64,000 bases of DNA, taken from positions 160,001-224,000 of the forward strand of contig VMGC01000001.1 in NCBI GenBank assembly GCA_007376385.1, read 5' to 3'. A model generated the notes under the pieces. It was given only the letters and a program-made list of their open reading frames with translations, made no database searches and had not been told where the DNA came from. This stretch comes from Parcubacteria group bacterium Gr01-1014_8 (GTDB lineage Bacteria > Patescibacteriota > Minisyncoccia > Phycocordibacterales > UBA2100). The position numbers and the translations under genes are program-made. Below, piece by piece: positions 4,501 to 52,813 of the stretch (positions are counted from its first letter, which is position 1; each line of letters begins with the position of its first letter).

Positions 4501-5093
4501 CCGAGAGCGTGTACAGAGGTGTAGGAGGAGCGCTTGAAAGCGTGCACTTGGAAGAATGGCCGAGTGGGATTTCAAGAGGATTTTTCTCTCGATTATTTGG
4601 CCGCGACAAGAGCAAAGAATCTTTAGCAAACATGGCAGCGGTGAGAGCTGCCGTATCACGTGCACTTGAAGCTAGAGAGAGGGCACGTATGAAAATACGC
4701 CAGCCGCTCTCGGCATTGATCCTTAACGGTGAACGCTTCCCCATCAAGGAAAGCGGGCTCCTTGATATCATCAAAGAAGAAGTGAACGTGAAGCGTGTTG
4801 ACGTTGGGGACATAACGGACGACGTATGGTTGGATACTGCGCTCACTCCTGAATTGAAGCGAGAAGGCCTCATTCGCGAGGTCTCGAGAACGGGACAGGC
4901 GGAGAGGAAGCTTTTGAAGCTGAGTCCGGAAGACAGGCTTTTCAGGGTCATCGTGCGCGGAACAAACGATACGATCCTCGCTGTTAAGGAACACGAATCA
5001 TACTTGCGGGAATCACTGAAAACCGATGTTTTGATGACCGAAGTAGATGAGTCTGGCAAAGAGCCTATGCGCGTTTCCATCGAGAAAAGATGA
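1596..5093 (+). CDS. ileS: isoleucine--tRNA ligase (eukaryote-like type 2) with an inserted histidine-phosphatase domain
   Basis: N-terminal 'EEVLKFWKEN', a HIGH-region variant PHTGS, CP1 editing-domain motif TTTPWTLPGN, 'DWTISRNRFWASPLP', KMSKS (SKMSKSKGN) and a C-terminal anticodon-binding region. The 1165 aa include an extra ~200 aa (see the insertion feature below). Confidence 0.9.
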   Translation: MAEQNSQEKSETAKREEEVLKFWKENTIFEKSLKKRAPKGEFVFYDGPPFATGLPHTGSLLSSIIKDVVPRYKTMRGYVVQRRWGWDCHGLPIESLIEKRLNLKTKKDILDIGIDTFNEAARASVMEFEHEWEKYVDRVGRWVDFKNSYKTMDNSYIESVWWALKQLYEKSLLYEGNKVLMYCPHCETPLAKAEIAMDHTYKDITEEAVTVRFKIKRPSRYGLPENTHFLAWTTTPWTLPGNVGLAVGPGISYVLVPESGGMAIVAKDRLDILKKSARPRVSVDMGREYKGSELVGMEYEPLYDVVSVIRHGGNKHVVLPADFVSTEEGTGVVHTAVMYGEDDFALGQKENLPKVQLLNPNGTYNKEAPAFLQGKYIKEAERDIKRDLESRGLLFERENHTHSYPHCYRCGTPLIYNAVASWFINIQKVKDKMLSENEKVQWVPEHLKHGRFKNIVENAPDWTISRNRFWASPLPIWKEKKGNRVMVVGSLDEIKKKSKKSGNKYFVMRHAWSTGNENGTLSSDKDADIGLTEKGIADARASLRAFGTKVDIIYTSSFKRTRETADIAAEVLGVPKEHIKSDDRLGECNFGPYSGKTLEEYHAAFPEKAERFSKGPEGGETYVEIRRRMMSVLSELEKSEKGKNILIISHGTPLWLLCASARGLSREEALSTRETDYPKQSVITELSFVPLPYNADYELDLHRPYTDSLTLLDEEGREYERIPEVVDCWVESGSMPFAEQHYPFENKSVFEKRAPGDFIAEYIAQTRTWFYYMHAMGVLLFGRLAFRNVVSTGTILAADSSKMSKSKGNYTDPLVVMDRYGADALRFYLMGSVVMQAEDLNFRDEDVRDTHNRVMGLLWNTYKFYELYKKEYEGKAFAKRSTNLLDQWVIARLNETVRTVTNALDAFNMPPAARAIRDFVEDYSTWYVRRSRERVKGSDKADKQFALATQREVLLDVAKMLAPIAPFIAESVYRGVGGALESVHLEEWPSGISRGFFSRLFGRDKSKESLANMAAVRAAVSRALEARERARMKIRQPLSALILNGERFPIKESGLLDIIKEEVNVKRVDVGDITDDVWLDTALTPELKREGLIREVSRTGQAERKLLKLSPEDRLFRVIVRGTNDTILAVKEHESYLRESLKTDVLMTEVDESGKEPMRVSIEKR
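3105..3700 (+). other. Histidine phosphatase (PGAM/SixA-like) domain inserted in the IleRS connective region
   Basis: The translation contains the ordered branch-1 histidine-phosphatase motifs: VMRHAWS (RHG-type catalytic His), LTEKGIADA, IYTSSFKRTRETA, RLGECNFGPYSGKTLEEY, ETYVEIRRRM and ILIISHGTPL (second catalytic His). It is flanked by IleRS sequence (IWKEKKGNRVMVVGSLDEI upstream, LDLHRPYTD...VDCWVESGSMPF downstream). The ORF is continuous and there are no intein-like termini. Confidence 0.7.
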
Positions 5094-29672: not shown

Positions 29673-30548
29673 ATGGTATCTGAAGATATGAAGAATCTCA
29701 CATTTATTAAGGATGGTGGGTGGCTTTCGATGACCATTGCGGTTGTTGTTGGCGTGTTTGCGGTTGTAGGGCTTGTTCAAGCAGCGACGACGATCTCAAC
29801 CAATGTAAGCACGGACGGCAACTTATCTGTTACCGGAACTGCGTCAGTGACCGGCCTTACGACGCTCGGTCAGGCCTCTTCAACGAGGTTGTCGGTGACA
29901 GACACGGCATACTTTGGCGGCACAGCAACGACGACCATTACATCCGCAGGTAACGTCAGTGTCGCAGGCACGCTCACGGTTACCGGGGCGGGCACCCACA
30001 CCGGTCTTGCCTCGTTCGTCCAGGCATCCTCGACGCGATTCTCGGTATTCGATACGGCATATTTTGGCGGGTCGGCAACATCGACGTTCTCGTCCACGGG
30101 TGCTCTAACGCTTATTACCGATCTAACACTCCAAAATGGTGAGGTTATCTCAAATAGCACCAATGGGACCGTTTCGATTGGAGGTGCAAGCGACATACTA
30201 AAGATTCTTGGCACCGCAAGTACATCGGCTCTTAAAGTTGGGGACGAGCCGGCAGCTCCTACCATTAACGGTATGGTTATCGGCTACTGTTCGTTCTCGG
30301 ATGTGGCGAGCTTTACGGCTTCCACGACAAAATATTTCGATTGCACAACAACGCCGGCTGGCGCGCTCATTTCTGGAGATCGGGTCTTTGTGCAGGCTAC
30401 GAGTTCCTTTGATTCGCCTTTCATTATTCAGGCTGCGTCAACGACTGGCGTAAGCACGATCAATCTGCGGGTCTTGAATACCGGAATGGACGGTGCAGCG
30501 GACACAACCCTCGGCGGTACCTCGATTAACTTCTGGGCTGTTCGCTAA
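29673..30548 (+). CDS. membrane-anchored/secreted Thr/Ser-rich tandem-repeat protein
   Basis: N-terminal hydrophobic segment WLSMTIAVVVGVFAVVGLVQA. It has an internal duplication (ASVTGLTTLGQASSTRLSVTDTAYFGGTATTTITSAGN / ASFVQASSTRFSVFDTAYFGGSATSTFSSTGA). There is no type IV pilin (G-F/Y-T-L-I-E) signature. Confidence 0.6.
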   Translation: MVSEDMKNLTFIKDGGWLSMTIAVVVGVFAVVGLVQAATTISTNVSTDGNLSVTGTASVTGLTTLGQASSTRLSVTDTAYFGGTATTTITSAGNVSVAGTLTVTGAGTHTGLASFVQASSTRFSVFDTAYFGGSATSTFSSTGALTLITDLTLQNGEVISNSTNGTVSIGGASDILKILGTASTSALKVGDEPAAPTINGMVIGYCSFSDVASFTASTTKYFDCTTTPAGALISGDRVFVQATSSFDSPFIIQAASTTGVSTINLRVLNTGMDGAADTTLGGTSINFWAVR

Positions 30549-31578: not shown

Positions 31579-31716
31579 ATCGGCCCTTTCGAGACCGCAG
31601 GGCGTTTGCCGATTTCTGGCTCCTCGGCTCGGAGATGCAAAAACTGAGTTTTTCTATCTCGCTCGTTCTACGTCGCCAGTAAGAAAAGTAGAGCGTGTAT
31701 AATGCACAGTTTTGAA

Positions 31717-31743
31717 ACAGCGGCGCCCTTTGGGCGCCGCTGT
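31717..31743. promoter_or_regulatory. perfect 12-bp inverted repeat (acagcggcgccc-ttt-gggcgccgctgt) upstream of the hydrolase gene
   Basis: Read directly from the sequence. It sits between a TTGAAA hexamer (31712-31717) and a TATAAT hexamer (31747-31752), 18 nt before the ATG at 31761. Confidence 0.4.
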
Positions 31744-31760
31744 TCTCATATAATGTCAAG

Positions 31761-34172
31761 GTGAAGCGGATCGAGACATGTATTTCTGCATGTGCCGCGT
31801 TCTTTATTTTCTACGCGACTTGTTTTTCGGTTGCATCAGCATTAGAAAGTCCGAAACAGATCGGTTATTTCTGCGATCCAGATACGCAAAGTATTGTTGA
31901 GGGACAGTATTATCTGCCGCAGCAGAACGTATGCGTCTATCAATCGTCAAGCATTGGCGGGTCCGGAATTTTCCGCGTAGGCGACATGTATCGCGGTACG
32001 CCAGGTAATGCGGAAAGGGTAATAGGACATGGACTCGGATCGGGGACCGAAAGTGCTCAATTAGGAGATCTTACAAATATAAATTTTCTAGGGATTCAGC
32101 AGGGCGAGGATATGTTCGTGGCAATCTATGAAGAACGCCCATGGCTTGGCAGTTACGACATCGAACACTTCCGTCCTTTTTTTGCGACGGGCGGTACGGC
32201 TCCTCATCAGAATTATGGGTTCATCAGATTTAAATACGGTGTAGCACCCCCACCCGAGCCGGACGAACCCGACCCCGTCATCATTATTCCTGGCATTCTA
32301 GGTTCGGAACAGCACAATGGGGAATGGGTGATTGACCCGATATTGCACACGTATGACGACTTGATTGCGACACTGGATGCGAATGGATATACGCCAGGGG
32401 TAGATTTGTTTCCTTTTCCATACAATTGGCGAAAGTCGAATGTGGAGACCGCGATATTGCTGAAGGCGAAGATCGATGAGGTCAAAGGTATTTGCAACTG
32501 CGATAAGGTGGACCTTGTTGCGCATTCAATGGGTGGCCTTGTTGCTAGGCAATACATCCAATCGGATGCGTACGAGCAAGATGTCGACCAATTAATCTTT
32601 CTCGGCACCCCCCACCTCGGCGCTCCGAAAGCGTATTTGATGTGGGAGGGAGGGGAGGTAGGGCCAGATTTCAGTGAGCGTCCCATGGAGTTGATTCTTG
32701 AGCACGAAGCATATGAAAAAAGATATCCCACATTATTTGCATACCTTCGTACTGAACCCATAGAATCTGTTCGAGAACTCTTGCCGATTTATGATTACCT
32801 TCTAGACGGGAGCGAAAAGAGATTGTACCCCGCTGGTTATCCGAAGAATGATTTTCTTGTGTCATTGAATGAAAACGTGGGAAAGTTAGAGACTTCAGGT
32901 GCGCGCATTTATAATTTCGTCGGCGATGTTGGTACACAAAACACTATTACCGAAATTAAAGTTACAAATGAACATCTGCATGCGCCGATGTGGGGACACG
33001 GATATCCGGAGGGATTTTATGAAAATTCTGGAGCTCCAGGTCTTATCAAGGGGCACGGTGATGGGACAGTACCACTTTCAAGTGCGTCTCTCATAACGTC
33101 GAATCTCTCCGCGACTTCTAGTATGCACACCGCATTGCCATCACATACGCAAGGGAAAATATACGAGATTCTTTCGGGAAAGATTGCGCAAACTATTATT
33201 CACGGCATCAATTTTCCAAACGTTCGTCTCGTGCTCATTAAAATTCTTTCCCCAGCCGACCTGCTCGTCATTGCCCCCGATGGCAAAAAAATCGGCAAGG
33301 AGAATGGTCAAGAAGTGAATGAAATACCAAACGCTTTTTACACTGGTTTCAATACGGTCACCGAATACATCGCTATTCTTAATCCGCTTGACGGCGAATA
33401 CAAAGTATTCACCGAAGGGACTGATACAGGCTCGTACACTGTAGAAACGGCATATATAAGCAATGAAAACGTTGTCGACTCATCATTTACGGGGAATACG
33501 ACACTAGGACTCGTAACAGAGCTAAATGTGCCAATTAACAATCAAAATCCACAACCTGATATTCAACCTACAGATAATGAGGCGCCTGCCATAACCATCG
33601 TAGCTCCGGGCGAAGCAGAGTATCTTCGTTCCGAGCAATTACCCATAGAAGTAAGCGCAGTTGATGCAGATTCGGGACTGCACTTTTTGGAAACGAAGCT
33701 CGACGGCATGACTATTCCGAACATTGGCTCAGTTGATTTATTCTTCCACGATCTTGGAAATCACGCGTTGTTTGCATCCTCTACTGACAACGTGAACAAC
33801 GAATCCACAGAATCACGCGCATTCAAGGTCATCGCCAACGCAACAAGCACACGAGACGACATGTCGCGAGCATATTCTTTGGAGTGGGTCACACAGAAAG
33901 TTTACGACGACTTGCTCAAGAAATTTAATGCTTGTTATAAGAAAAAGACCACACTTACAAGCGTTACCAAGACTGTCGTCGTCGCAGGCAAGAATGGTAA
34001 GCCTCCCACAACCAAGAAAGTCAACGAGAAAGTGACGAAAGTGGAAATCTACTTCGACAAAAAAACGGCGCAAGATATGCTGAAGACGTTGGATAAGTAC
34101 CGAGGGAAAGGTCTGAGTGAGGGGGGATATCGGATTATCAAGGAAGATGTTCAGTGGTTGATTAACAACTAA
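31761..34172 (+). CDS. secreted LCAT/PGAP1-like alpha/beta-hydrolase (putative phospholipase/acyltransferase) with C-terminal beta-rich extension domains
   Basis: Signal peptide, then IIIPGILGSE, then FPFPYNWRKS (LCAT-family PYDWR-type motif), then the nucleophile-elbow motif LVAHSMGGLVARQY (GxSxG), then ...GTPHLGAPKA. An extra ~450 aa follow, including a beta-sandwich-like region and a Lys-rich tail. Confidence 0.7.
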   Translation: MKRIETCISACAAFFIFYATCFSVASALESPKQIGYFCDPDTQSIVEGQYYLPQQNVCVYQSSSIGGSGIFRVGDMYRGTPGNAERVIGHGLGSGTESAQLGDLTNINFLGIQQGEDMFVAIYEERPWLGSYDIEHFRPFFATGGTAPHQNYGFIRFKYGVAPPPEPDEPDPVIIIPGILGSEQHNGEWVIDPILHTYDDLIATLDANGYTPGVDLFPFPYNWRKSNVETAILLKAKIDEVKGICNCDKVDLVAHSMGGLVARQYIQSDAYEQDVDQLIFLGTPHLGAPKAYLMWEGGEVGPDFSERPMELILEHEAYEKRYPTLFAYLRTEPIESVRELLPIYDYLLDGSEKRLYPAGYPKNDFLVSLNENVGKLETSGARIYNFVGDVGTQNTITEIKVTNEHLHAPMWGHGYPEGFYENSGAPGLIKGHGDGTVPLSSASLITSNLSATSSMHTALPSHTQGKIYEILSGKIAQTIIHGINFPNVRLVLIKILSPADLLVIAPDGKKIGKENGQEVNEIPNAFYTGFNTVTEYIAILNPLDGEYKVFTEGTDTGSYTVETAYISNENVVDSSFTGNTTLGLVTELNVPINNQNPQPDIQPTDNEAPAITIVAPGEAEYLRSEQLPIEVSAVDADSGLHFLETKLDGMTIPNIGSVDLFFHDLGNHALFASSTDNVNNESTESRAFKVIANATSTRDDMSRAYSLEWVTQKVYDDLLKKFNACYKKKTTLTSVTKTVVVAGKNGKPPTTKKVNEKVTKVEIYFDKKTAQDMLKTLDKYRGKGLSEGGYRIIKEDVQWLINN

Positions 34173-34185
34173 TATTATTTTCCGC

Positions 34186-34629
34186 ATGGGATCAAAAAAC
34201 TTGCTTCACAATTTTATATCTCATTTGGTTTTGTTGGTGATTTCAGTTGGGCTTACTTACTATTTGACACCACGTACGTACGAATCTCTGTATTGCAAAT
34301 ATATAAGCAACTGTGGCGGCGGATGGGTAGATTACGGCCCTGTCTTATGGATGGTAGCTTCGTATACATTTCTCGTTACGTTTCTTTTTATGACTTTCGG
34401 TAGGGCATATCGATATTGGTGGATCGGAATTTGTCTTGCACCGATATTGTTTTTAATTTTATGGATGACAATGCCTCCACTTATTTACATTAGCTCATTC
34501 GATTTTTCAGGCACCGCACTTTTATTGGGTGCTTGGGGTATTTATATACTTGCCGGATTAATTCTCGGCACAATTGCCCACAAGACCCTCCAAAAACTCG
34601 CGCGTGCGTTTATGGCGAGATTGTCGTAG
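34186..34629 (+). CDS. hypothetical integral membrane protein (about 4 TM)
   Basis: Hydrophobicity pattern, with tight spacing within the island. Confidence 0.5.
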   Translation: MGSKNLLHNFISHLVLLVISVGLTYYLTPRTYESLYCKYISNCGGGWVDYGPVLWMVASYTFLVTFLFMTFGRAYRYWWIGICLAPILFLILWMTMPPLIYISSFDFSGTALLLGAWGIYILAGLILGTIAHKTLQKLARAFMARLS

Positions 34630-38878: not shown

Positions 38879-39335
38879 TATTTCAGAGTTTTTCACCGGC
38901 TTGGGAGGGGTGAGAAGCGAATACTTGGAGCTTCACAAGGCCGGAGCCCGACGGGGCGAGGCGGGGTCGCGCAATTCGCCAGCAGGCGAATATGTGTGGC
39001 GGGGAACAGTTGGTCTCCCGTGGGGGAATAAATTGCAGTTGACTGCGATTTATCCGCTGCCGGAGGTAAGCGCCGATGCGAGCTTGCGAGCAGGCGCTAG
39101 GGCGACTTCTTCTGGTGTCGCGTTGAAAACCATGGGTGACCAAGAAAATAACGAGTGCAACGAGTATATTTTCTGAAGTACTCTTGTGGTGTTTTCAAGG
39201 AGGAGTTCTGTGATAAGCAGAGCGACGACGGGTAGTGCTAAGGTAACTCTCAAATAATTTTCTCGTTCTAAACAAAAAGCCCTCGTTGGGGCTTTTTGTT
39301 TAGAGTAGAGGAAAGGCGGCCGAAGCCGCCCTTCG

Positions 39336-41885: not shown

Positions 41886-42106
41886 TTCGACCCATTTCTC
41901 CTAGAACATTGAGGATTTTAGCCCCGCCAGGCCGCAGCCTGGCGGGGCTCCGTGCTTGTCCACCGGAAATCCACACTTTAAGCGCTCTTTTACCAAAATG
42001 CCCTCTTGACTTCCTCTTTTTCCCGTCTATACTCTCCCTTACGTATATGTGTTCGGAATTTAGCCTTAAAAAGTGGCAGATGTAGCCTAAGCGTTGCTTG
42101 TGCTAC

Positions 42107-42131: not shown

Positions 42132-43110
42132 TCGTGCCAAATACGATAGTCCTTTGACAACTGAAGAACGACACAATTCTTGCTCGTAAGAGCAGGAGAA
42201 AAAGAAAGAATAAGAAATTTTCTGAAAAGAAAATTTCTTTTCGCGCCGTCGCTCGCGGATCATGAGAATAAATTCTCGCGATACCGCTCGCTCGGCGCGA
42301 TCAACAACATTGATTCGGCTATTGTCTTTGGCCGGATCAGTGCAGGAAAAAATGTATTTTTGCGCAACCACTTTTCACAACCACAAGGTTGTAGAAAAGT
42401 GCAGTCCTGTAATAGGGAAAGCAAAAATCAAAAACAATCCGCCTTCGCACACGTTGTGTGCTATGGCGGGACAAAGAAAGTCCCGACACGCCAAAAGGTG
42501 TGACGGGCGCAATGCTTGTCCGTCTTGTAGCGGACAAGCAAAGTAATAAACCAATAACGCGGTTCTCAAATTTCCAAACGGGAATTCTGAGAAAGGGCGT
42601 GCGGCGGATGCCTTGACAGAAGAAGGCGATGAAGGACGCAGTTCGGCGGCGATACGCTTCGGGGAGGTGCCAAGCAACCTTCGATCCGGAGATTTCCGAA
42701 TGGGGAAACCCCATAGAGCAACCCTCTATGACTCATGCTCTAAACAGCATAGAGAGCAGACCTTGGGAAGTGAAACATCTCAGTACCAAGAGGAAAAGAG
42801 ACCAATAGGTATTCCCTTAGTAGCGGCGAGCGAAACGGGAAAAGCACAAACTCAGCCACAAAATCGAAGCGCGATTTATTTCGCGAATCGATTTTGGGGA
42901 TGGGGGTTATAAGGCTACAGCGCTAGCAATAGGTAGAGTAAAAAAATGCTTAGTTAGAGGAAGCGCCTGGGAAGGCGCGCAACACAGGGTAATAGCCCCG
43001 TACTCGAAAACGAAGCATCTCTATGGCTGTAGTTCTTGAGTAACTCGAGACATGAATAGCTCGGGTGAATTTGCCGGGACTAACCGGTAATGCTACATAC
43101 TTCTTCTGAT

Positions 43111-43153
<43 letters not shown>

Positions 43154-44660
43154 GGTGAGGGGAGTGAAATAGACCTGAAACCGCATGCCTACAAGGAGTC
43201 GGAGCGGGCACCACAGTGCTCTTGAAATTTTTTGCAGAATTTTTGCAAAAGATCTTTTCGGGTGCAGTGTGGTGTCCGTCACGGCGTGCCTATTGAAGAA
43301 TGAGCCAACGAGTTAATGCATACAGCTGGCTAAGCCCTTTTCGGGTGGAGCCGTAGCGAAAGCGAGTGTGAATAGCGCGACTATAGTTGTATGTATTAGA
43401 CCCGAAGCCAGGTGAGCTACCCATGAGCAGGCTGAAGTTTATAGAAATATAGATGGAGGGCCGAACCCGTAGATTGTGCAACATCTTGGGATGACTTGTG
43501 GGTTGGAGTGAAAAGCTTATCGAACCTGGTAATAGCTGGTTCTCTCCGAAAGAGCTTTCGGGCTCGCGTCATGGATTACATATGGGGGTAGAGCACTGGA
43601 AGAAGCGGATAGGCCGAAAGGCCACTGCCTCTATCAAACTCCGAATACCATATGCGTACCGTGGCAGTTAGACGATGGGGGCGAAGCTCCATTCGTCAAA
43701 AGGGAAACAGCCCAGACCGCCAGTTAAGGTCCCTAAATCTATGCTCAGTGCATTTCCAAGGAGGTGAAATTTCACAGACAGTGAGGATGTTGGCTTAGAA
43801 GCAGCCACCATTCAAAGAAAGCGTAACAGCTCACTCACTCAGAGATTTCGCGCCACAAATGATCGGGGCTTAAGCATAGTACCGAAACTGCGGATTCAGT
43901 ACGTCTTCGGATGTACTGTCTGGTAGGAGAGCGTTCTCTGTGCGATGAAGGTAAAGGGGTGACCCATGCTGGAGCGCAGGGAAGTGAAAATGTTGGCACG
44001 AGTAACCGCAAGGCAGGTGAGATTCCTGCCCGCCGAAAGAACAAGGTTTCCTTCGCAATGGAGATCAACGAAGGGTTAGTCGGTCCTAAGCCAATGGCGA
44101 ATGCCGCAGGCGATGGATTCATGGTTAATATTCCATGACTCGGAATTGGTGCGATGGAGTGACGGAGTGTTGTACCTCAAGCATATTATGGATTTATGTT
44201 CAGGCCGTGAGGATGCTTTTCAGGAAAATCCGGAGAGCACAGTCCAAGCGGAGTGGAAAAGTGGAGGCCTCGGCCGAAACTGATTTGAGGGAGCACGCTT
44301 CCAAGAAAAACTTCTAAGCTTATAACCAATGACGAACCGTACCGCAAACCGACACAGGTGTTCTGGTCGAATAGACTAAGGCGAACGGGTGAGAGATGCT
44401 CAAGGAACTCGGCAAAAAAGTGGCCGTACGTTAGCAATAAGGCCTGCCCAATACAGTGATGTATGGGGCCGCAGATAATTATTCCCAGGCGACTGTTTAC
44501 CAAAAACACAGCTCCCTGCAAACTCGTAAGAGGAAGTATAGGGGGTGATGCCTGACCAATGCCGGAAGGTCAAGTGTGGTCGGTCTCATATAGCAATATA
44601 TGTTGCTGGCACTACATAAGCCCCGGTCAATGTCGGCGATAACTATAATCGTCCTAAGGT

Positions 44661-45360
44661 TTCCCGCTTAAGAAATTGAGCGGGGAAGGACTGGGACGAT
44701 CATAGAATCGAATAAACAGCGAAAGAAAATACCAAAGCTGCCTCTCTGTGCAGTAATGCACAAGTGGTCCTAGAAACATGGCTATATGCTGGAAACCCTA
44801 TGGTATAATTATTCCATAGATGAGTAATCAGCAGGAAAGGCCAGAGATGAAAGGGTGGATCGTCGGTTTTACCGACGGCGAAGGATGCTTTTCAATAAGC
44901 ATGTTTCGCAACAAAACCACCAAGTTTGGTTGGCAAGTATTCCCAGAGTTTGTAATAACTCAGGGAAAGAAAAGTTTGCCAGCACTCGAAACTTTCCAAA
45001 ACTTCTTTAAGTGCGGAAAGATATACGAGAACGCTAGGTACGATAATCATCGTGAATATCTGTATCGATACTGTGTACGATCAATTTCGGATTTGCGGGA
45101 GAAAATAATCCCGTTTTTTCGAAAAAACAAATTGTATACAGCCAAACAAAAAGATTTCGAACTGTTTGCAGATGTCATAGAAAAGGTGTATCGAAAAGAA
45201 CATCTTTTAGAATCGGGATTGCGAGCGATAGCGCGCAAGATCGAACAGATGAATCGCAAGAAGAAATCAACATTTCTGGAATCCTCAGAGACTACACGCC
45301 ATGCCCCTAAATCTAAATAAGATCGGGTGAAGATATAGTCCAAAGGTAATAGGAACCTAG
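44661..45360 (+). mobile_element. group I intron 1 (after the E. coli U1917 equivalent) encoding an intact LAGLIDADG endonuclease
   Basis: The upstream exon ends in T, the intron ends in G (omega-G), and the downstream exon resumes at AGCGAAATTCCT. Conserved R-like (cagagactacacg) and S (gaagatatagtcc) core elements are present. Confidence 0.75.
44820..45320 (+). CDS. LAGLIDADG homing endonuclease (single-motif, 166 aa)
   Basis: Motif IVGFTDGEGCFS with the pattern characteristic of LAGLIDADG homing endonucleases. The 3' end of the ORF overlaps the intron R element. Confidence 0.8.
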   Translation: MSNQQERPEMKGWIVGFTDGEGCFSISMFRNKTTKFGWQVFPEFVITQGKKSLPALETFQNFFKCGKIYENARYDNHREYLYRYCVRSISDLREKIIPFFRKNKLYTAKQKDFELFADVIEKVYRKEHLLESGLRAIARKIEQMNRKKKSTFLESSETTRHAPKSK

Positions 45361-45372
45361 AGCGAAATTCCT

Positions 45373-45681
45373 AGAAGACTGGGACTATCAGTCAAAAACT
45401 ACTGATAGCAAATTCTGCTATATGCTGGAAACTCCGAGTATCCAACAGTACCCTGACGAAATGGAAGGGTAAAAATCTGTTGGTGCGGACAATCAGCAGG
45501 GAAGTCGTAATTGACCCCTCAACGACTACACGCAGAACTCCACGAAGCTCATCAATCCGATGCTGTTTCGGGAGGTGATATAGTCTGAACTGCATGGCGA
45601 CATGCAGAGTTTGGCTCGCGCCAAACCGCTTCAAACAAATTGAAGTCATTATTCTCACTAGAGAATAGTAAGTAACAGAAT
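45373..45681 (+). mobile_element. group I intron 2a (ORF-less; carries a decayed homing-endonuclease N-terminal remnant)
   Basis: Follows the 12-nt exon agcgaaattcct. Contains the R element tcaacgactacacg, the S element gtgatatagtc and a terminal G before the exon TGTCTGGT. Its 5' region is similar to intron 1 (gactgggac..gctatatgctggaaac). The remnant reading frame (aat cag cag gga agt cgt aat tga) parallels the homing-endonuclease 1 N-terminus SNQQERP. Confidence 0.5.
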
Positions 45682-45689
45682 GTGTCTGG

Positions 45690-46149
45690 TAACTGGATTG
45701 CCAGTTAGTACAGCGATGTACTACAAAAGATCCGCCTGTCAGCAATGACGGTAGTAATTCGGCTTATAACGGTGGAATCCTACTCGGAGCACTTTAGACG
45801 AGGTGCGTTGATGAAAGGATAATACCGTGGGAAGTCTTGTGAGTTTCGTGGAGGGCAACCTCCGTGCGAGAGCGCCTCGCCCGGTTGAGGGCGGTCGGTC
45901 GGCATTGGTGCTGACTGTCTGATCTGGAGCCTCTGTCCAGGCTCTCGCATCAATCTTCTCATCATGGTGATGGGAACTTCCACGAAACTCGCAATGACCC
46001 CGTAACGACTTAGCGCGAAAGCGCTGGAAGTGTCTCAAAAACACTTAACACGCCGACTCTGCAATGCGCAGAAGAAGATATAGTCTAATGCCCGAAGTAA
46101 TTCGGGGAGAGTGTCATATTGCGCGAAATATGACGATCAAACTCAAATG
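45690..46149 (+). mobile_element. group I intron 2b (ORF-less; carries a decayed homing-endonuclease remnant homologous to the intron 3 endonuclease)
   Basis: Follows the 8-nt exon tgtctggt. Contains the R-like element cgtaacgacttagc, the S element gaagatatagtc and an omega-G before the exon AAGTTCAGACG. The remnant reading frame is KDNTVGSLVSF..., compared with MDNTVGSLTQL in intron 3; the ATG has been lost. Confidence 0.5.
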
Positions 46150-46699
46150 AAGTTCAGACGCGCACGAATGGTATAACGACTTGGGAACTGTCTCGAGCAT
46201 TTGCCCGGTGAAAATACAAGGGCGGTGAAGATGCCGCCTTCCTGCAGCTAGACGAAAAGACCCCAGAAGCTTTACTGTAATTTGGTATTGAGGATACGAT
46301 TTTTCCGCGTAGCGTAAGTGGGAGGCTTTGAAGCAAGGATCTCGGTTCTTGTGGAGCCGTCAATGCAACACCACTCCTAAAAATTGTATTTTCTAACTTC
46401 CATAGCAAAACTGTGGAAAGACAGTACCTGATGGACAGTTTCGGTGGGGCGCTGTCCTCCTAAAAAGTAACGGAGGAGCCTATTAAGGTCACCTAGGTGC
46501 GAATGGAAACCGTACCGGTAGTGCAATGGCAAAAGGTGGCTTGACTGCGAGTCGTACGTGACAAGCAGGCGCGAAAGCGGAGCATAATGAACCGATGGTT
46601 CGCATTAGATGCGACCAAAGATTAACGGATAAAAGTTACTCTGGGGATAACAGGCTGGTTTCGCCTAAGAGTCCAAATCGACGGCGAAGTTCGGCACCT

Positions 46700-47542
46700 T
46701 AACAAATCGGGGTGCGACGTAAGCAATTACGTAGCTTGGCTCACACATGAGACCAAGAACCAACATGTGTGCAGTTCAAATCGTGGCTTATAACGGTGAA
46801 CTCCATGGTATTATAGAACAATCGTTCTATAGTATATGGACAATACCGTGGGAAGTTTAACTCAATTACAGCGATCAATAATTATCGGTAGTCTCTTAGG
46901 TGATGGCTACTTACGGATCGTACCGCGCAGATACAATGCGTTTCTCGAGATCAATCATTCGTATTCACAAAAAGAATATGTTGATTGGACATTCGAGATG
47001 CTCAAATCGATCTGTAGAAGCGGTCCGAAGATGCGAAACGGAAATGGTGTGCGAATTGCATACCGTTTTACGACTCGTCAAATGCCGGAAATCACCGAAT
47101 TGTTCAAAGTGTTTTATGCCAATGGCAAGAAATAAATTTCGAACAATTTAAGATTAGATCCGATAATGCTTGCTGTATGGTTCATGGATGATGGAAGTAG
47201 GTGTAGCGTTGAGAACGTGTACCTTAATACTCAGCAGTTTAATTTCGATGATCAAGAAAAATGCAGGGCAATGCTCATGCGGCTTGGTATCGAAACAACT
47301 CTCAATAAGGACAAGAAGTATTTGAGAGTGAGGATAAAAACATCCTCAATCCCAAAACTTCATAAAATTATCTCACCGCACATCATTCCATCCATGAAAT
47401 ATAAATTGGGTTATAACCCCGTAGAGACTCGCTTCTTCGGAAGCGGAGTTACTGACTCTGTAATGAGCAGTAGCTAACACGCCACCTCCTTTCAATAGAA
47501 AGGATGATGATATAGTCCGATCCTTCCAGTAATGGAAGAAAA
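46700..47542 (+). mobile_element. group I intron 3 (near the E. coli 2499/2500 equivalent) with a double-motif LAGLIDADG gene
   Basis: The upstream exon ends ...GGCACCT, the intron ends ...cattG, and the downstream exon resumes CGATGTCGGCTCATC. The S element is gatgatatagtcc. Confidence 0.7.
46836..47477 (+). pseudogene. double-motif LAGLIDADG homing endonuclease interrupted by a single in-frame TAA (47133-47135)
   Basis: First motif IIGSLLGDGYL and second motif LAVWFMDDGS are in the same reading frame. The 30 nt between the stop and the next ATG also read in frame (ISNNLRLDPI), consistent with one ancestral ORF of about 213 aa. Confidence 0.7.
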
Positions 47543-47786
47543 AATGACATTGCGATGTCGGCTCATCTTAGCGCGGGGCTGGAGAAGGTCCCAAGCGTAT
47601 GGCTGTTCGCCATTTAAAAAGGTACGTGAGCTGGGTTCAAACCGTCGTGAGACAGGTTGGTCTTAATCTGCTGTAGGCGTTGATTCTTGAGGAGACTCAT
47701 TTTTAGTACGAGAGGACCGAAATGAACTGACCTCTGGTCTGGGGGCTGTAGTACCAACTGCATCGCCCCGTAGCTATGTCGGGATT

Positions 47787-47819
<33 letters not shown>

Positions 47820-48002
47820 GACTCCAAGATTAGGAATCGTTATAGACTCGTGGGAGATGACCACGTTGATAGGCACCAGGTGGAAGCGCAGTAATGCGTT
47901 GAGCCGAGGTGTACTAATTAGTCGACAGAATTCTCGAAAGGAATTTTGGGAGTCGCGATACTGGTTTATTGCGACGAGCGAGGACGAAGCGAAAATTTAT
48001 TG

Positions 48003-48256: not shown

Positions 48257-48367
48257 TGTTCTGGTGATTTATCGCTGGGGTCACACCTGTTCTCATTCCG
48301 AACACAGTAGTTAAGCCCAGTTGAGGCGATGGTAGTCGCAAGGCGAGAGTAGCTAGTCGCCAGAACA
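48257..48367 (+). rRNA. rrf: 5S ribosomal RNA
   Basis: ctggtga...tcacacctgttctcattccgaacacagtagttaagcccag...gatggtagt...gagagtag...tcgccag. Helix I pairs (ctggtga / tcgccag) and loop C is conserved. Confidence 0.85.
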
Positions 48368-48808: not shown

Positions 48809-51190
48809 ATGCTGAAACAAGATGAGCATTGGTGGTCGCCGGGGGTGCGTAAGCGGATCATGGACGGTCCCGCCGCTGATTCGAAAATTGTGGACAGCGG
48901 CGTAGGGTCCAAAACGCCCGAGGGAAGCGGATCGTGGTCCGAAACTGCGCAGCAAATTCTCGACTCTTTGTTCGCTACTAAAAACAGCAGGAGTTTCGAG
49001 GAATATCTCGAACGAAACTTCCTTACAGAACCTCGTATCTCCGACAAAGTGACATTACAATCACTAGCATATGCCCGCGACAAGCTGGCGGCGTTGGGTA
49101 GCGACCGCCGTAACAGAGAAGACGGCACAGATGCAGAACTTATTCAAAATGCGCATGTCGCACTCGTCCGAGCAATTATAAAGGTGCGTGTCGCGCAGGA
49201 ATCCACACCCAAATCGAATAAAGAACGGGAGCCGTATAAAGACCCGACTATTGTCACAGCAGCAGAAGTCCAACAATCGGCGATAGACACGCAGCGAGAC
49301 TTGCATATTCGCGCCGAACAGACCGAGCATGAAATTCGGGTTCTTCTGGATAAGTTATTTCACGCCAGTATTCTTGGGAAAAAAGAAAGACAATCAGTCG
49401 TAGATGAGATTGAAACCTACGTAAAAGAAGCCAAAGAGAGTATCGATGAGAGGCGCTATGCGTATCTGCAGATGTCGCTCGCTTCAGTTTGGCACTCGCT
49501 TCAGGATATTGAGAGAAAAAAAGAGCCAAGCGCTGAACTACTTGCAGAACTATCGAAACGCGCCTACGACGAACTCTATGGCAAGTTACGGGAGACTGCG
49601 CGCGCGCTTTTTAATGTTGAGCTTGATTCGTACGCACTTTCTGACGAGCGGGATGTTATTTCTGTTTTCACGAATACAAGCCACACATCTCGATTGCATG
49701 AGTTGGGTTTGACAGCGGAAGAAATTGACTCGTTCCGCATCGCGGCGGGGTTTCTCCAAAAACACCAATCAGATTATCGGTTGGTCGGCTCATCGGCATT
49801 TGCCACGAAGCTATTTCTAGGTTCGTTCAATAAAGTTACGTGCAGAAATCATATAGAAAATGTCACCGTTGCGCTTGATAAAGCACTTGTGCGTCGAATG
49901 AGAGATGAGCTCGTTCAATTACTTCCCGAGCTTTGGAATGCGGGGGTATATAAGTACACACCTGAAGTCATCATAGATAAAATGATGGAAAAAGCCGACG
50001 CACAGTATCAAGCGGGATTTCGGAATAGTTATTCAAGATTGCGCCCAAAACTGGAAGAAGCATTCCGCGATGCAGAAGAGAGACTTCGAGCAAGTGGCGT
50101 TGAAGCGACGGCTCGCAAAGTGGAATTTAACGAGGAAGAATGGGCACTCGATGCGATATTGAGCGAGAATCGGGCACGGCTTGAATATCTTGAATTCATC
50201 AATCCATCGAACGGTGCCGCAGAAAAAGCGAAATTCTTTGATGCGTTGAAAAGAGGCGAAGAATATAATCCGCAATTAGAATACGCGGTGAAGGAATCTC
50301 AGGAGCAAGCACTCAAGCTTGCGTCGCATACAATAGAAAGAGCAGGAAGAATGGTGAAAACGGGTCCAAACGTCGATATATTCGTTCGGGAAATAGTAGT
50401 GCAGGAGCGTACACTTGAGTTTATACGAGGCATTGGCGCGGAACACTGGTCGCAGCGTCGTGCCGAACGACTGTTCGGTCGCATCGACAGATTTCTTCTC
50501 GATGACACAGTTGCCGAGCTCAAAGAAATGCCAAGCGGTTTTTTTGAGAACGGAGGAGAGAATCTTTCGAAAGACGAGGTTAGAACGCAGGCAATGAAGG
50601 CTTTGAAAGATGTTGGCGCTTCAGATTGGTCATTCGACTTTCATGCGCAAGAAAATGTGCCATCTGTCGTGCTCGCGAGCAGGAAGCAAGTCTTTTTCCA
50701 GAAACGCGAAGTGTATCCGGAACAATTCGTGAACATTCTCATAGCGCATGAAATTTACGGCCATGTTGCACAAGATAATAATGCTTTGAAGCACGGAGTC
50801 GGACTTCTTCAGAGCGGTCTCGGCAATTACGAGCCACTGATGGAGGGTTTTGCGCTTGATCAGGAACGGAAAGTAAATCCTCTCACGGAACTTCGCATTA
50901 AGTTCTACTACGCTGCAGTCGCGCATGCAGCTAAACACTCCTTGCATGATACGTTCCAGTATCTCAAACGATGGCTTCCCGATGAGGATGCTTATGCACT
51001 GGCGTCACGGGTGAAGCGGGGGATGCGGGACACGAGTAAGCCCGGTACGTGGCTTAAGGACAAGATATATTTGGAGGGACTAACAGAACTGGATCATATG
51101 TCGGCTGAAGATCAGGCGCTTGTGAGGCACGGCAAGTTTGAAGGAGCTCTGACGGCGAACGTTCGTCGGCTCGTTTCCAATCGGCTCTAG
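48809..51190 (+). CDS. DUF1704/QEGLA-family-like protein (putative zincin-type metallopeptidase) with a ~550-aa helical N-terminal extension
   Basis: The C-terminal region has HExxH (ILIAHEIYGHV) followed about 25 aa later by ...PLMEGFALDQE (a QEGLA-like motif). 793 aa. Confidence 0.55.
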   Translation: MLKQDEHWWSPGVRKRIMDGPAADSKIVDSGVGSKTPEGSGSWSETAQQILDSLFATKNSRSFEEYLERNFLTEPRISDKVTLQSLAYARDKLAALGSDRRNREDGTDAELIQNAHVALVRAIIKVRVAQESTPKSNKEREPYKDPTIVTAAEVQQSAIDTQRDLHIRAEQTEHEIRVLLDKLFHASILGKKERQSVVDEIETYVKEAKESIDERRYAYLQMSLASVWHSLQDIERKKEPSAELLAELSKRAYDELYGKLRETARALFNVELDSYALSDERDVISVFTNTSHTSRLHELGLTAEEIDSFRIAAGFLQKHQSDYRLVGSSAFATKLFLGSFNKVTCRNHIENVTVALDKALVRRMRDELVQLLPELWNAGVYKYTPEVIIDKMMEKADAQYQAGFRNSYSRLRPKLEEAFRDAEERLRASGVEATARKVEFNEEEWALDAILSENRARLEYLEFINPSNGAAEKAKFFDALKRGEEYNPQLEYAVKESQEQALKLASHTIERAGRMVKTGPNVDIFVREIVVQERTLEFIRGIGAEHWSQRRAERLFGRIDRFLLDDTVAELKEMPSGFFENGGENLSKDEVRTQAMKALKDVGASDWSFDFHAQENVPSVVLASRKQVFFQKREVYPEQFVNILIAHEIYGHVAQDNNALKHGVGLLQSGLGNYEPLMEGFALDQERKVNPLTELRIKFYYAAVAHAAKHSLHDTFQYLKRWLPDEDAYALASRVKRGMRDTSKPGTWLKDKIYLEGLTELDHMSAEDQALVRHGKFEGALTANVRRLVSNRL

Positions 51191-52775: not shown

Positions 52776-52813
52776 TTATAAAAACTCAGCCGTAGCGCGA
52801 GGAGCGCTACGGC
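52776..52813 (-). terminator. minus-strand intrinsic terminator (gccgtagcgc-gagga-gcgctacggc, then UGAGUUUUUAU on the minus strand)
   Basis: Perfect 10-bp stem. The U-run lies on the minus strand. Confidence 0.45.

Follow-up and report, generated by a model that had tools for sequence, protein, structure and literature searches.

We analysed a stretch of 64,000 nt from Parcubacteria group bacterium Gr01-1014_8 (contig VMGC01000001.1, positions 160,001 to 224,000 of the forward strand), which is referred to here as the window. A first-pass annotation, made from the letters alone, had described a gene within it as coding for a secreted LCAT/PGAP1-like phospholipase or acyltransferase. We hold with moderate confidence that this gene (31761–34172, + strand) and the gene directly downstream of it (34186–34629, + strand) constitute a two-gene module, in which a secreted enzyme of the phospholipase A type is combined with a dedicated partner for tethering or self-protection, and which is directed against the envelope of a host or neighbouring cell. 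The first gene codes for a multi-domain serine hydrolase of 803 aa that is most similar to Tle4 and lysosomal phospholipase A2 (LPLA2). The second gene starts 13 nt past the hydrolase stop and codes for a protein of 147 aa with about four transmembrane (TM) segments, listed as TSC87085.1 ('hypothetical').

The open reading frame (ORF) of the hydrolase lies exactly where the first-pass annotation had placed it and starts with GTG. The corresponding NCBI entry (TSC87084.1, 'PGAP1 family protein', Parcubacteria group bacterium Gr01-1014_8) is 100% identical to the window hydrolase; it starts at Met76, has a length of 728 aa and leaves out positions 31761–31985, so that the public record lacks the signal peptide as well as a portion of the N-terminal domain. 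We rejected this start. The complete N-terminus is covered in the alignment to orthologues of 783–813 aa, the DNA of the closest orthologue (locus L091) has also kept the GTG and the first codons, and a second, independent gene call resulted in 803 aa. For these reasons the 803-aa form with the GTG start is the correct one. A Sec-type signal peptide is predicted for aa 1–27 (31761–31841, + strand) with cleavage between ASA and LE; its sequence is MKRIETCISACAAFFIFYATCFSVASA, directly followed by LESP. The orthologues keep the signal peptide and then the context A-LESPxxIGYFC, and a hydrophobic N-terminal segment is present in 89 of 98 family members, in agreement with the export signal that had been proposed before. 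The mature enzyme is predicted to have about 775 aa after Sec processing. The hydrolase sequence contains no lipobox, no LPXTG motif and no C-terminal TM segment.

The LCAT signature and the nucleophile elbow named in the first-pass annotation were located at aa 217–226 (FPFPYNWRKS) and aa 252–265 (LVAHSMGGLVARQY). Comparison to Pfam placed three families above their cut-offs: LCAT (PF02450, 60.7 bits, cut-off 21), with aa 196–299 matching positions 67–176 of the 392 profile positions, PGAP1 (PF07819, 36.8 bits, cut-off 24.3) and Lipase_2 (PF01674, 20.8 bits, cut-off 20.3). The motifs of the hydrolase domain are PGILGS, PYNWR (aa 220–224, aligned to PYDWR of LPLA2), CxC (C245, C247), AHSMGG and GDGTV. 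In an alignment of 98 sequences S256, D434, H456, Y221, W223, T436, C245 and C247 are invariant. Ser256 in AHSMGG (codon 32526–32528, + strand) aligns to the nucleophile serine of LPLA2, and Asp434 in GDGTV (codon 33060–33062, + strand) aligns to the aspartate in GDGDGTV of LPLA2 and in GGDETVP of Tle4. His456 (codon 33126–33128, + strand) stands at the beginning of the helix behind the last core strand and is located 22 residues past Asp434, a spacing that is equal in Tle4 by a gapless, individually weak alignment. Based on its invariance, its place after the last core strand and this alignment, we assign His456 to the triad. Conservation, alignments and modelled secondary structure thus point to Ser256-Asp434-His456 as the putative catalytic triad. 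The invariant CxC pair (Cys245, Cys247; 32493–32501) immediately precedes the strand running to the nucleophile; it might form a disulfide or a metal site, or have another role.

The domain layout was derived from an AlphaFold2 model built on 98 homologues (mean pLDDT, the predicted local confidence score, 92.4) together with the conservation of each domain. The signal peptide is followed by a beta-rich domain with a Cys38/Cys58 pair (aa 28–164; 31842–32252, + strand), which is poorly conserved across the family and has no match among the PDB sequences. In other family members precomputed Pfam lists show other modules of variable length in this slot (Beta_helix, NosD, Laminin_G_3, immunoglobulin (Ig)-like), and we consider the N-terminal beta domain a candidate targeting module. 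The alpha/beta-hydrolase domain comprises aa 165–480 (32253–33200, + strand). After a strand at aa 275–281 it carries a cap-like helical insertion (about aa 290–380) in the model; no lid was identified in this insertion. It is followed by a beta-sandwich domain that is conserved throughout the family (aa 481–600; 33201–33560, + strand) and by an Ig-like beta domain with a weak OmpL47-type match below the cut-off (aa 601–692; 33561–33836, + strand); these two gave no useful match to PDB sequences. The C-terminal domain (aa 693–803; 33837–34169, + strand) is basic, with 23 Lys and Arg versus 13 Asp and Glu. When it was modelled alone (pLDDT 89), it formed a four-helix bundle with a Lys-rich beta-hairpin of 40 residues between helices 2 and 3.

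This layout changes the earlier description in two points. The hydrolase had been assigned to the N-terminal 330 or so residues; this part really consists of two domains, the separate beta domain (aa 28–164) and only the first portion of the hydrolase domain, and Asp434 and His456 lie beyond residue 330. The remainder, described as about 450 further beta-rich and Lys-rich residues, is to be replaced by a C-terminal region of about 320 aa that is made up of the beta-sandwich, the Ig-like domain and the four-helix bundle with its Lys-rich hairpin. Three things had been overlooked: where the domains really begin and end, that the membrane-binding domain of LCAT and LPLA2 is absent, and the downstream partner gene.

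The partner gene is the only conserved neighbour of the hydrolase gene. In the first loci that were fetched, a homologous small membrane protein was encoded directly 3′ of the hydrolase gene, while all other neighbours were different. A profile search with the partner resulted in 73 relatives, all of them unnamed and none with a Pfam domain. Several are encoded on the same contigs as hydrolase matches, for example by consecutive locus tags (HY983_03340, HY983_03345). In reverse look-ups from five independently found partners, each of the five loci had an LCAT/PGAP1 hydrolase gene upstream of the partner and on its strand, and the two genes were abutting or overlapping in four.

Hidden Markov models of the domains were applied to all 172 fetched loci. 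A partner gene was present at each of the 16 loci (14 distinct) that encode the C-terminal domain of the type described here, at distances of −22 to +24 nt, but at only 2 of 11 loci of close relatives without this domain (Fisher p = 2.7e-5). The presence of this C-terminal domain predicts the presence of the partner gene. The module itself was confined to family hydrolases at the 172 loci, with the exception of a fragment at L089/L090 (see below). When only the C-terminal domain served as query of a profile search, meant to reveal the module on other enzymes, just two short fragments were obtained; since known family members were not recovered, this search was uninformative. Family hydrolases that have a variant helical C-terminus without the hairpin are sometimes followed by another kind of small multi-TM ORF, with about 95 aa, as seen at three loci (L008, 8015–8299; L095, 5490–5780; L101, 5424–5720). 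These ORFs are homologous to each other and have no detectable homology to the window partner.

Arrays of partner genes were found in two locus types. At L085 (23–4351) three partner-like genes with 3–4 TM segments are located past the hydrolase gene. At L089 (1103–5849), and likewise at L090, the hydrolase gene is followed by a partner, a paralogue, an ORF of 77 aa and another paralogue. The 77-aa ORF shows 87% identity to the last 77 residues of the hydrolase. This duplication of a fragment together with a partner suggests that the 3′ end of the hydrolase gene and the partner are inherited as one unit. By its layout the array resembles cassettes of orphan toxin ends and immunity genes.

An exhaustive HMMER search for the hydrolase family yielded 7707 representatives (clusters at 50% identity) at E ≤ 1e-3, 3020 at 1e-10 and 656 at 1e-30. 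The conserved stretch comprises aa 165–600 and often continues to aa 803. All full-length relatives with a taxon name belong to the Patescibacteria, with Kaiserbacteria, Paceibacterota, Giovannonibacteria, Magasanikbacteria, Nomurabacteria, Kerfeldbacteria and Moranbacteria as named lineages. Matches outside this phylum mostly cover about 100 residues around the nucleophile, and a few, such as those from Chloroflexaceae (L010) and Burkholderiales (L012), cover most of the hydrolase domain. Loci were sampled from a scan of a genome collection, in which generic HSMGG matches dominated and which gave 8 true family loci, and from a metagenome scan that added about 15 more. One orthologue (P0021) is derived from a Crystal Geyser sample, CG10_big_fil_rev; this sample series is also the source of lysolipid-rich cells of the Candidate Phyla Radiation (CPR) that were analysed previously (PMC7242380).

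In order to get an idea of the nearest characterised enzymes, we compared the family profile to PDB sequences. The first match was 4r1d_A (E 1.2e-8), followed by LPLA2 (1.4e-6); LCAT was matched with 2.6e-3. 4R1D is the Tle4-Tli4 complex of the H2 type VI secretion system (T6SS) of P. aeruginosa (PMC4832377), and Tle4 is an antibacterial lipolytic toxin that is neutralised by the product of a neighbouring immunity gene (PMC4832377, PMC5611513). The window hydrolase and Tle4/TplE have the motifs PGIxG, Y(N/D)W..SN, HSMGGLVAR and GD.TVP in common as well as the Asp-to-His distance of 22. Judged from the sequences, action on a membrane outside the cytoplasm and a dedicated protein encoded alongside would be further likenesses. 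Tle4 is delivered by a T6SS, while the window hydrolase carries a signal peptide for Sec export and lacks a T6SS context; no T6SS genes were found among the neighbours in the window or at the related loci. Tle4 has an insertion of about 145 aa between PGIMG and YNW that the window hydrolase lacks, and the latter has in addition the N-terminal domain, the beta-sandwich, the Ig-like domain and the four-helix bundle. The immunity protein Tli4 is periplasmic (PMC5611513), in contrast to the integral four-TM protein encoded in the window. The window pair can also be set beside a Gram-positive system. TslA of S. aureus is a lipase toxin that acts on membranes of a monoderm-type cell and is encoded with membrane-associated protective proteins (TilA), which are sometimes present in several copies; its secretion through a type VII secretion system and its immunity family differ from the window pair.

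With LPLA2 (4X90), 258 residues of the hydrolase model can be superposed, and the AHSMG nucleophile elbow, the PYDWR-type motif and the GDGTV aspartate motif of LPLA2 and LCAT align with the window hydrolase. Like these secreted or luminal enzymes, the window hydrolase would act at lipid interfaces. LCAT and LPLA2 are eukaryotic single-module enzymes without a membrane partner gene. Next to the hydrolase domain they possess a membrane-binding domain and a lid-bearing cap (PMC6277198). A Foldseek search of the model gave BlEst2 of B. licheniformis (6wpx, E 6.7e-12) and the A. fulgidus lipase (2zys/2zyr, about 3-7e-6) as top matches. In BlEst2 (6WPX) and the A. fulgidus lipase (2ZYR), the hydrolase domain and the next beta domain align jointly with the window protein. 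For EstA3 of T. tengcongensis, deletion of the beta-sandwich abolished activity on C12–C16 substrates (PMC10816834). Lipases of this type differ from the window protein in having no Ig-like and four-helix-bundle extension, no variable N-terminal module and no partner gene, and no LCAT-type motifs were reported for them in the present comparison. By its motifs and alignments, the hydrolase is a stripped-down core of the LCAT/PGAP1 lineage, surrounded by different accessory domains.

Considering these results, we propose the following mechanism. The first gene would provide a Sec-exported Ser256-Asp434-His456 hydrolase of the LCAT/PGAP1 lineage, with Tle4 and LPLA2 as nearest relatives, that most likely deacylates membrane glycerolipids in the manner of a phospholipase A, possibly with transacylation, and releases lysolipid and fatty acid. 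Since an LPLA2-type membrane-binding insertion is missing, engagement of the substrate and its surface probably depends on the accessory domains. The variable N-terminal module may recognise the target or select its surface, the beta-sandwich behind the hydrolase may bind acyl chains or the interface, as in lipases with C-terminal beta domains, the Ig-like domain may serve as a spacer, and the basic four-helix bundle with its hairpin at the C-terminus may contribute as well. The four-TM partner most likely binds this C-terminal domain at the membrane of the producer, and would thereby tether the enzyme to the surface, protect the producer's own bilayer in an immunity-like fashion, or both. As the target, the envelope of a host or neighbouring cell is most likely; the products could feed the membrane of the symbiont and/or permeabilise the host. 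The role in scavenging of host lipids that the first-pass annotation had put forward is plausible.

Several observations weigh against this mechanism. The Pfam LCAT match leaves profile positions 1–66 and 177–392 unmatched. The membrane-binding domain of LCAT and LPLA2 is absent: PGILGS and PYNWR are separated by 37 aa, which form a beta-hairpin, compared to about 112 in LPLA2. The alpha/beta-hydrolase clan also contains thioesterases, polyhydroxyalkanoate (PHA) depolymerases and glycosylphosphatidylinositol (GPI) deacylases, and the lipid substrate is predicted from the sequence. The contact between the C-terminal domain and the partner is deduced from their co-occurrence, and fold matches of the C-terminal domain were uninformative. 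The partner, which is without a Pfam match, is not homologous to Tli4 or any named family. Most close relatives with a variant C-terminus have no detectable partner, which means that the partner is not obligatory for this class of enzymes. Finally, the hydrolase core is highly conserved, unlike that of typical polymorphic toxins.

This last point also bears on a purely antagonistic function, in which the hydrolase would be a diffusible, bacteriocin-like membrane toxin against hosts or competitors and the four-TM protein its immunity protein, with no part in lipid nutrition. Such a function would fit the finding that the nearest relative by sequence profile and fold, Tle4, is a T6SS antibacterial effector with an adjacent immunity gene (PMC4832377). 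The position of the small membrane-protein gene directly downstream of the hydrolase gene, often overlapping it, likewise fits a toxin-immunity pair. The arrays of divergent partner paralogues and the one duplicated cassette of 3′ end and partner look like immunity arrays and orphan modules, and the variable N-terminal module is similar to receptor-binding domains of bacteriocins. Yet it is this non-catalytic module that varies, while the catalytic domain is strongly conserved family-wide, and the presence of the partner follows the non-catalytic C-terminal domain and not the catalytic one. Of about 16 distinct loci only 2 had arrays, and the five reverse look-ups revealed no orphan partner without a hydrolase. 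Moreover, killing and harvesting are compatible for an obligate episymbiont. We regard a function restricted to antagonism as rather unlikely.

A further alternative places the enzyme in the housekeeping of the producer's own envelope. PGAP1 proper is a GPI inositol deacylase, and a PGAP1-like deacylase or transacylase might remodel the cell's own glycolipids, lipoproteins or anchors similar to lipoteichoic acid, with the partner presenting the substrate. The Pfam PGAP1 match, the wide distribution with a conserved catalytic core, and the membrane partner in the same operon-like unit agree with this, as do the neighbours in Kaiserbacteria, which include a Wzy_C/O-antigen-ligase-like protein and peptidoglycan (PG)-binding proteins. 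We consider it improbable, since this neighbourhood is not kept beyond close relatives, and since highly variable adhesin-like N-terminal modules (Beta_helix, LamG, Ig) would not be expected of such an enzyme, nor partner arrays of a substrate-presenting subunit; in addition, the structural relatives that rank highest are membrane-attacking phospholipases. That the enzyme is instead a carboxylesterase for non-lipid substrates (a polyester or PHA depolymerase, a cutinase-like or a cell-wall esterase), next to a gene linked by operon inheritance only, appears very improbable. Generic alpha/beta-hydrolase families do match the sequence as well, but the LCAT-type motifs PYxWR and GDGTV are invariant. 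A linkage that outlasts the replacement of every other neighbouring gene, and that is tied to the C-terminal domain, speaks against passive hitch-hiking of the partner gene.

CPR bacteria (Patescibacteria) reportedly lack lipid synthesis, yet they have ordinary acyl-lipid membranes that are rich in lysolipids, and a phospholipase A was suggested as their source (PMC7242380). According to a perspective from 2024, no mechanism for uptake or breakdown of lipids has been identified in Patescibacteria (PMC11665869), and phospholipases were proposed to compromise host envelopes (PMC11665869, PMC12455944). The tethered or self-protected phospholipase that we favour is a testable candidate for how CPR bacteria obtain or damage host lipids. 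In a more far-reaching version the pair would be the missing lipid-acquisition device of CPR bacteria of the Paceibacteria type: the enzyme, a surface-tethered phospholipase or transacylase, would dock via its four-helix bundle to the four-TM partner and act on the host envelope, from which it would release lysolipids or acyl chains, and the partner would shield the producer's bilayer and receive these products for insertion into the symbiont membrane. This version is speculative and we think it doubtful; if true, it would account for the lysolipid-rich membranes reported for CPR. If the pair should be an antibacterial toxin-immunity pair only, it would still be new as a delivery-independent relative of the Tle4 effectors of T6SS, found in a phylum that has no T6SS.

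The domain assignment itself ('PGAP1 family protein') is already public. In the literature we found no description of the corrected secreted form or of the six-part architecture, none of the kinship to Tle4 and LPLA2 without their insertion or of the size of the family and its restriction to one phylum, and none of the linked membrane partner with its occasional arrays. Our data define a large protein family of the Patescibacteria, which consists of Sec-secreted enzymes similar to Tle4 and LPLA2 with a modular targeting end and a linked, unnamed membrane partner.

Upstream of the hydrolase gene, a perfect inverted repeat of 13 bp with a 3-nt loop (AACAGCGGCGCCC-TTT-GGGCGCCGCTGTT; 31716–31744, arms at 31716–31728 and 31732–31744) ends 17 nt before the GTG. 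RNA folding of positions 31700–31775 resulted in −30.9 kcal/mol (z −3.5). At the equivalent site L091 has a GC-rich hairpin with partly different bases. The first-pass annotation had considered this palindrome an operator-like site. The palindrome as such was verified, but a role as operator is not supported; comparable perfect hairpins without a T-tail (stems of 10–16 bp, mostly GC-rich) are found in other intergenic regions of the window (39267–39304, 41920–41949, 52789–52813). The occurrence of such GC-rich hairpins elsewhere suggests generic terminators, and hairpins without a T-tail may be the terminator type of this organism. The palindrome could belong to the upstream gene as its terminator-like RNA hairpin, or it could be a palindromic DNA site over the −35 region. 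A TATAAT hexamer (31749–31754, + strand) is located 6 nt before the GTG, and L091 has TATACT at the same spacing (about 4988–5003). No Shine-Dalgarno sequence is present at the hydrolase start in the window (31749–31763) or in L091. The −10-like hexamer at this short distance, together with the lack of a Shine-Dalgarno sequence, points to a possible leaderless mRNA. A consensus scan around the palindrome revealed no sigma-70 promoter, no matching −35 hexamer and no canonical terminator.

The genes upstream of the hydrolase gene code for PG_binding_1 proteins, a TPR protein and a Wzy_C/TPR protein, and membrane proteins and a GATase are encoded downstream. This gene order is common to the Kaiserbacteria relatives L001 and L091, but not to L002, L003 and L084–L090. 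The surface-protein island in which the first-pass annotation had placed the hydrolase gene thus turned out to be synteny within a lineage, with unrelated neighbours at the more distant loci. We rejected the island as a functional unit, because outside the Kaiserbacteria the partner gene alone survives next to the hydrolase gene. Among the nearby genes, 29673–30548 encodes a protein of 291 aa with an N-terminal TM segment and a Thr/Ser-rich segment that is internally duplicated (ASSTRLSVTDTAYFGGTATTT and ASSTRFSVFDTAYFGGSATST). No Pfam family matches this protein, which could be a surface or pilin-like one.

The rest of the window agrees with the CPR affiliation assumed before, namely to an ultra-small bacterium of the Parcubacteria/Kaiserbacteria type. 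Its 23S rRNA gene (42579–47938, with 44820–45320, 45363–45607 and 46836–47477) has a length of 5.4 kb for a 2.9-kb model. Within it lie a group I intron, a LAGLIDADG_1 ORF that is intact and a LAGLIDADG_2 gene that is split into two ORFs and probably disrupted. A 23S rRNA gene broken by a group I intron and LAGLIDADG ORFs makes the window CPR-like. A 5S rRNA gene follows at 48260–48365, and neither a 16S rRNA gene nor any tRNA gene was detected in the window. Further downstream, 48809–51190 encodes a protein of 793 aa that matches the Pfam family MATCAP (microtubule-associated tyrosine carboxypeptidase) with 65 bits over aa 481–765, which is unusual for a CPR bacterium.

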